Positions 45,934-49,760 of a stretch of DNA of 64,000 bases are shown one piece after another. The stretch is from assembly GCF_003334355.1 (NCBI RefSeq), contig NZ_QOWP01000002.1; one strand, 5' to 3'. The translations under genes were made by a program, and so were the position numbers. The notes beneath the pieces are model-generated. The model had not been told where the DNA came from, did not search any database, and worked only from the letters and a program-made list of their open reading frames with translations. The DNA is from Escherichia coli. GTDB taxonomy: Bacteria > Pseudomonadota > Gammaproteobacteria > Enterobacterales > Enterobacteriaceae. The stretch's first letter is position 1; each line of letters starts with the position of its first letter.

Positions 45934-45962
45934 GATAATGCAAACGATAATAATTATCAATC
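45934..45962. promoter_or_regulatory. Fur box(es) in the cirA upstream region
   Basis: gataatgcaaacgataataattatcaatc contains GATAAT hexamer repeats resembling the Fur consensus GATAATGATAATCATTATC. Confidence 0.55.
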
Positions 45963-46010
45963 CAAATGTTAAATTTTATATCCGCATGATTTGTCAGGGA
46001 AATGGAATTG

Positions 46011-47526: not shown

Positions 47527-47730
47527 ACAAAAATGCTATCCATCTTAAAAATGAGGCGCGATTGTAGCAGACGATTGGCAATCCTTCCGGCAGAAATACA
47601 CGGTTATAAGACACCTTCATGATCGCCCAGGGATTATAAGTAAAGCAGCCAATCTCTTTTCTGGCGAATGCATGCTGAAGGCGCTGCGTCACGAAATCGA
47701 CACAGCACCAGCATGTTCTTGTACAGCAAC

Positions 47731-48612
47731 TTAACGCGGCACATTTGCGGGATCGCAATAGTCCAGAAAGCGCCGTAGCGCGTTGGAAAGGTGTTTTTGC
47801 CGATGATGTATACGCCACAACGTACGCATCAGGCGCGGCAGAGGGACCGCAACTTCACTTAATGTGCCTGCCTGCAATTGATCTTCAATCACACGTCGCG
47901 ACAGGCAACTAATTCCCAACCCATGACGCACCGCATGTTTGATTGCCTCGGAGTTACCTAATTCCATCGCCATCTCAAACTTCGGTAAATGTGACAGCAA
48001 CAGATAATCGACAATCTCCCGCGTGCCGGAACCGCGTTCACGCAGGATCCACGGCGCAGCGGCCAGCTGTTCTAAGGTGACCGGACCACGGGCCAACGGC
48101 GAAGTCGGCGCGGCGAAAACCACCAGCTCGTCTTCCAGCCACGGTTCAGAAATGATTTCAGTGCTGTGGCACGGTCCTTCAATAAAGCCAATATCAACGC
48201 GGAAATCCAGCACCGCTTGCATCACGTCCTGGCTATTCCCAACGCTAAGTTCAATCGGCAACTGCGGATAATCATGGCGATAACGGGCGATAACTGCAGG
48301 CAGAATGTAGTTACCGATGGTACTACTGGCATAGATACGAATCGCGCCGTTGTCTTCGCGAAACAGTTGTTCGATTTCAACCGCCTGTTCAAGCAATGCC
48401 AACGCACGCGGATAGAGCAGCCGCCCGTGTTCATTAACAACCAGTCTTTTCCCCACGCGATCAAACAGTTGCACGCCAAGCTGCCCTTCCAGGTCGGTCA
48501 AGGCTGCGCTCACTGCTGATTGCGACAACGCCAGCATCACCGACGCCTGGGTGGTTGATCCACTTTTCAATACTTCTGCAAAAACTTCCAACTGCCGGAG
48601 GGTGATGTGCAT
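47731..48612 (-). CDS. yeiE: YeiE, LysR-type transcriptional regulator (293 aa)
   Basis: N-terminal LysR HTH ([34 protein letters not shown]). Divergent from yeiH. Confidence 0.9.
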
Positions 48613-48710
48613 AGTCGCTTACCACTTATAAAGATTAATTATAAATATATAATCAATTTTATTTTTAAACCAGTTAGTCGTAACCTTATGCCCGGTTAAA
48701 GGAGAGGGTT

Positions 48711-49760
48711 ATGACGAATATCACCTTACAGAAACAACATCGTACACTGTGGCATTTTATTCCGGGGTTAGCCCTGAGTGCAGTTATCACCGGGGTCGCC
48801 CTGTGGGGTGGTTCCATTCCCGCGGTTGCGGGTGCCGGGTTTAGTGCCCTCACCCTCGCAATCTTGTTGGGGATGGTTTTAGGCAACACCATCTATCCGC
48901 ACATCTGGAAAAGCTGTGACGGTGGTGTGCTGTTTGCCAAGCAATATTTATTACGTCTGGGTATCATTCTTTATGGCTTCCGTCTGACGTTCTCGCAAAT
49001 TGCCGATGTCGGTATCAGTGGGATCATCATTGACGTGTTGACGCTGTCCAGTACCTTCCTGCTGGCTTGCTTCCTGGGGCAGAAAGTGTTTGGTCTGGAT
49101 AAGCACACCAGCTGGTTGATCGGTGCCGGTAGCAGTATCTGTGGTGCTGCCGCGGTACTGGCGACTGAGCCGGTAGTGAAAGCGGAAGCCAGTAAAGTAA
49201 CCGTGGCTGTTGCAACCGTTGTTATCTTCGGGACCGTCGCGATTTTCCTCTACCCGGCGATATATCCGCTGATGTCTCAATGGTTTAGTCCGGAAACTTT
49301 CGGTATCTACATTGGTTCTACTGTGCACGAAGTGGCGCAGGTGGTGGCGGCAGGTCATGCTATCAGCCCGGATGCGGAAAACGCAGCAGTTATTTCCAAA
49401 ATGCTGCGCGTGATGATGCTGGCTCCGTTCCTCATCCTGCTGGCGGCGCGTGTTAAACAGCTGTCTGGGGCGAACAGCGGCGAGAAAAGCAAAATCACTA
49501 TTCCGTGGTTTGCCATCTTGTTCATCGTCGTTGCCATCTTTAACTCGTTCCACCTGTTACCGCAGAGCGTGGTGAACATGCTGGTAACGCTGGATACCTT
49601 CCTGCTGGCAATGGCGATGGCGGCGCTGGGTCTGACCACTCACGTCAGCGCGCTGAAAAAAGCCGGGGCGAAACCTCTGCTGATGGCACTGGTACTGTTT
49701 GCCTGGCTGATTGTTGGTGGTGGTGCGATTAACTATGTGATTCAAAGCGTCATCGCATAA
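48711..49760 (+). CDS. yeiH: YeiH, UPF0324-family inner membrane protein (349 aa)
   Basis: Multi-pass hydrophobic ORF divergent from yeiE. Confidence 0.9.

Follow-up and report, generated by a model that had tools for sequence, protein, structure and literature searches.

The 98-nt spacer between the divergent genes yeiE and yeiH of Escherichia coli is, with a probability of about 85 %, the operator of the LysR-type regulator YeiE combined with the promoter region of both genes. It would constitute a compact, back-to-back pair of divergent promoters with one LysR-type operator common to both, located in a conserved block of 55 bp. The regulatory link between the two genes is already known from the literature, for Salmonella and partly for E. 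coli. Added here is a map of the E. coli region down to the nucleotide, comprising the 55-bp block, two candidate recognition dyads and both promoters, which points to the bases worth mutating or footprinting and leaves the current understanding unchanged. All positions refer to the window, the whole stretch of 64,000 nucleotides that was analysed. The genes and the spacer are located as follows:

47731-48612, minus strand: yeiE, open reading frame for a LysR-type sulfite-sensing transcriptional regulator of 293 aa, with the start codon complement CAT at 48610-48612
48613-48710: yeiE-yeiH spacer, 98 nt, between the start codon complement of yeiE and the ATG of yeiH
48711-49760, plus strand: yeiH, open reading frame for a YeiH/PF03601-family inner-membrane protein of 349 aa, with the ATG beginning at 48711

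The original prediction had described the spacer as an AT-rich divergent promoter region and placed it exactly, bounded by the CAT of yeiE and the ATG of yeiH. Its composition agrees with the description: the spacer has a GC content of 29.6 % compared to 51.6 % for the window, and positions 48619-48668, with 10 % GC, are the lowest-GC 50-mer of the 64 kb, the next lowest having 18 %. YeiE matched NCBIfam LysR subfamily models and scored 534 bits against the equivalog NF040889 (cutoff 480), YeiH reached 568 bits against TIGR00698 ("YeiH family putative sulfate export transporter"). Close homologues of YeiE carry the N-terminal HTH_1 domain PF00126 and the C-terminal LysR substrate-binding domain PF03466. 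The YeiE of the window is identical over residues 91-293 to PDB 8sbh ("Transcriptional regulator YeiE"), the E. coli effector domain, and the Cronobacter structures 7erp and 7erq were matched with E=1e-107. The sulfite-contact residues listed for Cronobacter YeiE (PMC8931317), S96, S97, N126, S127, E145, R191, S195 and T197, are present 8/8 in the YeiE of the window. By these protein matches, the identities of both genes are secure.

A query of 298 nt covering the spacer and both gene starts (48513-48810) matched in 5426 of 5426 complete E. coli genomes, in 5420 of them with at least 99 % identity, and the genes were annotated as yeiE and yeiH; the spacer belongs to the core chromosome of E. 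coli. In K-12 the genes here follow the order cirA, lysP, yeiE, yeiH, nfo, yeiI. Upstream of cirA, positions 45930-45979 have 20 % GC, and GATAATAATTATC resembles a Fur box, as expected for an iron-regulated receptor gene. The lysP start of Kim et al. 2012, NC_000913.2 2246659, corresponds to window position 47631 with a leader of 105 nt, and within the yeiE-lysP spacer (47527-47730) 47604-47622 and 47552-47566 stand out as short conserved islands. An Rfam search at permissive threshold over 48300-49000 gave zero matches; an RNA element in the yeiE-yeiH spacer is unsupported, and the DNA between the yeiE and yeiH starts is untranscribed.

The original prediction had proposed two experiments, an EMSA with YeiE and yeiH reporter fusions in a yeiE deletion background, and both are available from published work on S. 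Typhimurium with positive outcome. Purified YeiE shifted a yeiE-yeiH intergenic fragment in EMSA (Westerman et al., J Bacteriol 2026, PMC12880088). PyeiH was undetectable without sulfite and its dose-dependent induction by sulfite required yeiE (PMC12880088). The activity of PyeiE was higher in a yeiE deletion, while an increase of PyeiE activity and of YeiE protein by sulfite was observed only with yeiE present (PMC12880088). These authors noted that PyeiE was most active without YeiE, and that once YeiE binds sulfite another regulator may gain access. A yeiH mutant was 20-fold more sulfite-sensitive than the wild type; the yeiE deletion was also sulfite-sensitive, and its PyeiH was not induced by sulfite (PMC12880088). 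For E. coli, a strong YeiE ChIP-exo peak at the regulatory region of yeiE itself is reported in PMC12880088 with reference to Gao et al. 2018 (PMC6237786). Our literature search found neither a nucleotide-resolution YeiE footprint for E. coli or Salmonella nor E. coli reporter or EMSA data on yeiE-yeiH. In Cronobacter, sulfite was bound in the effector pocket of YeiE, and the cysJI promoter was bound with or without sulfite (PMC8931317). YeiH-family proteins of Hyphomicrobium are treated as sulfite exporters; their genes adjoin a YeiE-like regulator and were 526-fold induced by thiosulfate (PMC12423496). In Bordetella, a YeiH-family exporter is implicated in sulfur homeostasis (bioRxiv 10.64898/2026.04.22.720190).

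The conservation of the spacer, taken as a phylogenetic footprint, lies clearly above chance. One genome per species was scanned, yielding 80 Enterobacteriaceae loci with a YeiE of 82-100 % identity. All 79 loci with upstream DNA had yeiH divergent from yeiE. Together with the equivalog match to NF040889 and the Salmonella experiments, this bears out the predicted arrangement of a LysR regulator divergent from its target. The spacers were 97-247 nt long, and the 80 species presented 77 distinct sequences. Aligned, these revealed a block with sharp edges, 48618-48672, of the pattern CTTACCAC-TTAT-nnn-GATTrATTATAAATATATAATCAATTTTAyyTTTAArCCA. The sites within the spacer are, from left to right:

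48618-48672: conserved block of 55 bp, phylogenetic footprint of 77 distinct spacers, putative YeiE operator interleaved with both core promoters
48621-48635: ACC-N9-GAT, centred at -66 of yeiH, of the FinR-site form, with a possible role in E. coli
48626-48644: TTAT-N11-ATAA dyad, centre 48635, i.e. -59 of yeiH, candidate recognition site
48634-48657: attaattataaatatataatcaat, the 24-bp imperfect palindrome ATTRATTAT-N6-ATAATCAAT
48636, minus strand: yeiE transcription start, from a published 51-mer mapped to the window
48644-48649, minus strand: probable yeiE -10 hexamer TATATT (-13 to -8), inside the palindrome
48658-48672: T-rich block TTTAyyTTTAArCCA, -36 to -22 of both promoters, weak yeiH -35 region and candidate activation site
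48681-48686, plus strand: probable yeiH -10 hexamer TAACCT (-13 to -8)
48694, plus strand: yeiH transcription start, from a published 51-mer mapped to the window
48699-48704, plus strand: yeiH Shine-Dalgarno sequence AAGGAG

Within the block, each column of a 24-column run (48638-48661) was at least 0.97 identical over the 77 distinct spacers, and variable positions were isolated (48625, 48630-48632, 48637, 48662-48663 and 48669). Free variation was found towards the ends of the spacer at 48613-48617 and at 48673-48680. Controls from the same species behaved differently. In the yeiE coding sequence, identity to E. coli at third codon positions was 50 %, and runs of at least 0.96 reached 5 columns at most. 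The yeiE-lysP spacer, likewise containing a regulated promoter, averaged 57 % identity, and its conserved runs did not exceed 8 columns. The block is clearly constrained far more than the coding sequence or the neighbouring spacer. What was measured is conservation and not protection, and the overlap of the two core promoters must account for part of it.

In Citrobacter, a naturally inserted repeat marks the left edge of the block, corresponding to 48620/48621 in the window. In several Citrobacter-like species (L011, L016, L017 and L018, with spacers of 244-247 nt) the insertion, between CTTA and CCAC, is a dispersed repeat about 125 nt in length; shorter forms were present in L020 and L048. 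Because of its position the repeat lies inside the yeiE leader. E. coli genomes carry it in a median of 11 intergenic copies, at 80-90 % identity; it resembles the ERIC/IRU element. Escherichia and a few other genera are devoid of about 21 nt of the yeiE leader found in most other genera, where the spacers of such longer-leader loci measure 116-123 nt (e.g., L012, Salmonella; L014, Citrobacter). With this gap, at 48613-48620 in the window, 24 nt of yeiE leader are left in E. coli. The gap has a copy of TT(A/T)CCAC on either side, which points to a deletion by way of these short direct repeats.

A simple consensus scan for sigma-70 promoters and terminators over 48400-48900 gave no match, the promoters being too weak or atypical, and the published transcription starts were therefore used. 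Table S1 of Kim et al. 2012 (PLoS Genet) places the E. coli K-12 start of yeiE at NC_000913.2 2247664 on the minus strand with a 24-nt leader, and that of yeiH at 2247722 on the plus strand with a 17-nt leader; the reads were few (16 for yeiE, 13 for yeiH) and obtained with no added sulfite, and a sulfite-induced yeiH start could differ. The two starts are 58 bp apart. All six columns of the probable yeiE -10 hexamer were 97-100 % conserved. In the probable yeiH -10 hexamer, T48681 and A48682 were invariant and T48686 was 92 % conserved; the region of the Shine-Dalgarno sequence, 48698-48705, was conserved to 91-99 %. An acceptable -35 hexamer was not found upstream of the mapped yeiH start, where TTTATT occupies -36 to -31. 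Such a missing -35 element is the signature of an activator-dependent promoter. By the published starts, the conserved block spans -76 to -22 of yeiH and +19 to -36 of yeiE. The former is the textbook span of a LysR recognition-plus-activation site (PMC11495319), and by analogy to this general LysR model we infer the activation site in the T-rich block 48658-48672. A perfect plus-strand TATAAT is located inside the palindrome at 48648-48653, 41-46 bp upstream of the yeiH start. It has no mapped start of its own; it may merely arise from the palindrome sequence, or it may serve as an alternative promoter under other conditions; as -10 element of yeiH it was rejected on account of the mapped start at 48694.

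The original prediction had further pointed to AT-rich dyads, quoting attaattataaatatataatcaat, that could hold a T-N11-A LysR box. Dyads are indeed found in the spacer, and the quoted string was located at 48634-48657. The box fared less uniformly. A conserved dyad with the proper spacing, TTAT-N11-ATAA, is present at -59, but the dyad of the quoted string is even-spaced and the motif as such is uninformative: 12 T-N11-A were observed in the spacer and 10.7 were expected from its composition, a count at the level of chance that was dropped as evidence. The palindrome consists of 9-bp arms with a 6-bp spacer and, being even-spaced, cannot be a symmetric T-N11-A box; the canonical LysR box has 13/15 bp, while the most conserved dyad of the spacer is even-spaced instead. 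The palindrome is centred at -48.5 of yeiH and -9.5 of yeiE, overlies the -10 element and +1 of yeiE, and in its full form occurs once in the 64-kb window. In E. coli 10 of its 12 pairs match, barely better than in dinucleotide-shuffled versions of the core (P=0.05). A third of the species carry G at 48637, and in this variant 11 of 12 pairs match (P=0.003). Dyads in DNA of 10 % GC are weak evidence by themselves.

TTAT-N11-ATAA is the sole conserved dyad with T-N11-A spacing. Its arms were 97-100 % conserved, whereas 48630-48632 inside its spacer vary freely, and it overlaps only half of the quoted string; its centre at -59 is one helical turn from that of the palindrome. At the position of ACC-N9-GAT, a perfect ATC-N9-GAT was found only in L030, L069 and the more distant locus L084, whose YeiE homologue has 68 % identity. 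The high-affinity site may be one of the odd-spaced dyads at -59 or -66, which have the canonical position and spacing and the FinR-like form, or the even-spaced palindrome at -48.5 with the strongest symmetry and conservation. Any single assignment of the recognition site within the block is tentative and falls short of even odds.

Since the best 120 direct matches to YeiE were all at least 89 % identical, distant homologues were drawn from representatives of 50 %-identity clusters. Of the 7 homologue clusters examined (about 50-68 % identity), 4 had the divergent yeiE/yeiH pairing. The PF03601 gene was divergent beside the YeiE homologues in L084 (68 %), L091/L092 (53 %), L087 (52 %) and L093 (49 %). 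In one further cluster, L089, a yeiH-family gene was adjacent and downstream of the YeiE homologue, but convergent. L085/L086 and L090 had no yeiH-family gene beside the YeiE homologue. In L090 a gene for a rhodanese domain lies upstream; the flanks in L085/L086 are the his operon and a HI0933-like flavoprotein, with no sulfur-related neighbour. Pairing of YeiE and YeiH is common, not universal, among homologues of about 50 % identity.

The spacer of L084 retained GATTGATTATAAAAATATAATCAATTTTATTTTTA nearly intact, and that of L091 retained GATTAT-ACAAAA-ATAATC despite diverged flanks. Across all loci fetched, a perfect GATTAT-N6-ATAATC occurred once per locus and was confined to the yeiE-yeiH spacer; this core persists beside YeiE homologues of 68 % (L084) and 53 % (L091/L092) identity. 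A dyad moving with the regulator while the surroundings change behaves like the operator of that regulator. It is unlikely, though deserving consideration, that YeiE reads a non-canonical even-spaced dyad or that a second factor shares the palindrome site, giving yeiE the "other regulatory cue" of the Salmonella study. In the cysJ-queD spacer of E. coli, reported as a target of YeiE, the palindrome, its half-sites, the left part of the block and a FinR-type box had only weak matches; no regulon motif was derived. Either YeiE binds the cysJ site through a motif that differs from the palindrome or is weaker, or recognition involves more than the palindrome.

An alternative of low probability attributes the AT-rich core mainly to another DNA-binding protein, e.g., IHF, Fis, H-NS or a second regulator of yeiE, with YeiE contacting only the flanking ACC-N9-GAT or TTAT-N11-ATAA. 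The spacing of the palindrome is wrong for a canonical LysR box, the mapped FinR site of Pseudomonas, ATC-N9-GAT, resembles the left flank and not the palindrome (PMC5302815), and the Salmonella study itself raises the access of another regulator at PyeiE (PMC12880088). For IHF, AATCAA followed by a T-tract at 48651-48660 presents a partial WATCAA-like element, but the consensus is incomplete, the TTR part missing at 48661-48663. Such a protein would also have to account for the GATTAT-N6-ATAATC core that follows YeiE homologues into loci of 53-68 % identity with changed surroundings, as a co-evolving operator would, and for the ChIP and EMSA results that, as related in PMC12880088, put YeiE on the short spacer.

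Still less probable is that the conservation reflects solely two interleaved core promoters with their -10, -35 and UP-like A/T tracts, the palindrome containing no specific operator and YeiE binding elsewhere or non-specifically. The yeiE -10 element, both -35 regions (48658-48672) and the TATAAT at 48648-48653 all fall in the invariant run, and sigma-70 holoenzyme alone selects the yeiE-yeiH spacer in genomic SELEX (PMC3946193). However, promoter hexamers tolerate substitutions, and the lysP promoter region of the same species is limited to the short runs given above; the block reaches to -76 of yeiH and +19 of yeiE, past any core promoter, and both promoters are experimentally YeiE-dependent in S. 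Typhimurium (PMC12880088). Equally improbable is a yeiH transcript initiated from the TATAAT (start near 48660, 51-nt leader) with YeiE as pure repressor released by sulfite: the perfect hexamer and a nearby yeiH promoter predicted from sequence by Shimada et al. (TTACCA-15-TATAAA, PMC3946193) speak for it, but the sole mapped yeiH start is 48694, and the sulfite-sensitive Salmonella yeiE deletion without PyeiH induction indicates activation and not simple derepression (PMC12880088).

With the spacer read as YeiE operator and divergent promoter region, the following mechanism can be proposed. Regulators of the LysR family act typically as tetramers. In the absence of sulfite, a YeiE oligomer would sit on the 55-bp block and cover the -10 element and +1 of yeiE; that the block overlies both positions fits autorepression. 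The yeiH promoter, with a recognisable -10 element (TAACCT) but no usable -35 element, would be silent. Binding of sulfite to the effector domain would alter the placement of YeiE on the DNA, possibly in a "sliding dimer" shift from the promoter-distal to the promoter-proximal activation site. The repositioned YeiE may then attract RNA polymerase to the -35 region of yeiH (-36 to -22), yeiH would be switched on and the autorepression of yeiE relaxed. YeiH would confer sulfite resistance, probably by export. In this scheme, the contacted bases, the division into recognition and activation sites, the repositioning and the transfer from Salmonella to E. coli are our inference.

YeiE and YeiH are emerging as the main bacterial circuit for sulfite stress, with relevance for food preservation by sulfite and for the survival of enteric pathogens in the host. 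A fragment of about 48618-48700 could act as compact sulfite-responsive promoter for biosensors.

Among the closest known systems is that of S. Typhimurium, with orthologous genes in the same divergent layout. The reporter fragments of PMC12880088 (Figure S1) share the core block cttaccacttataaagattaattataaatatataatcaattttattttta... with E. coli, and the Salmonella locus of our set (L012) differs from it by one base. The spacers differ in length, 120 nt in S. Typhimurium and 98 nt in E. coli, which is devoid of the 21 nt or so of yeiE leader. FinR of P. aeruginosa, described as a YeiE homologue (PMC12880088), also forms a divergent pair with its target, but this target is fprA and not yeiH (Boonma et al. 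2017, PMC5302815). Two overlapping dyads were found upstream of fprA, of which TATCCATATTCTGGATA, with the form ATC-N9-GAT, is essential (PMC5302815); E. coli has ACC-N9-GAT at -66. The enterobacterial GATTAT-N6-ATAATC has half-sites in the opposite orientation to the FinR dyad and an even spacing. Moreover, the promoter motifs of finR and fprA are reported as non-overlapping (PMC5302815), whereas the -35 regions of yeiE and yeiH overlap.

YeiE of Cronobacter sakazakii at cysJI (Hong et al. 2022, PMC8931317) belongs to the same regulator family and responds to the same effector, sulfite. The target promoter is a different one, and the E. coli cysJ-queD spacer holds no good copy of the palindrome. 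Binding with and without sulfite implies for C. sakazakii a changed binding mode and not a release from the DNA (PMC8931317). From the "sliding dimer" promoters of BenM/CatM, CbnR and OccR (PMC11495319), the yeiE-yeiH region differs in its strongest dyad, which is even-spaced and lies in DNA of 10 % GC. It resembles them in the divergent arrangement of regulator and target, in a conserved stretch of some 55 bp between about -76 and -22 with a candidate distal dyad of T-N11-A spacing near -60, in a weak -35 element of the target under the proximal part, and in the position of the regulator's own promoter under the putative operator.
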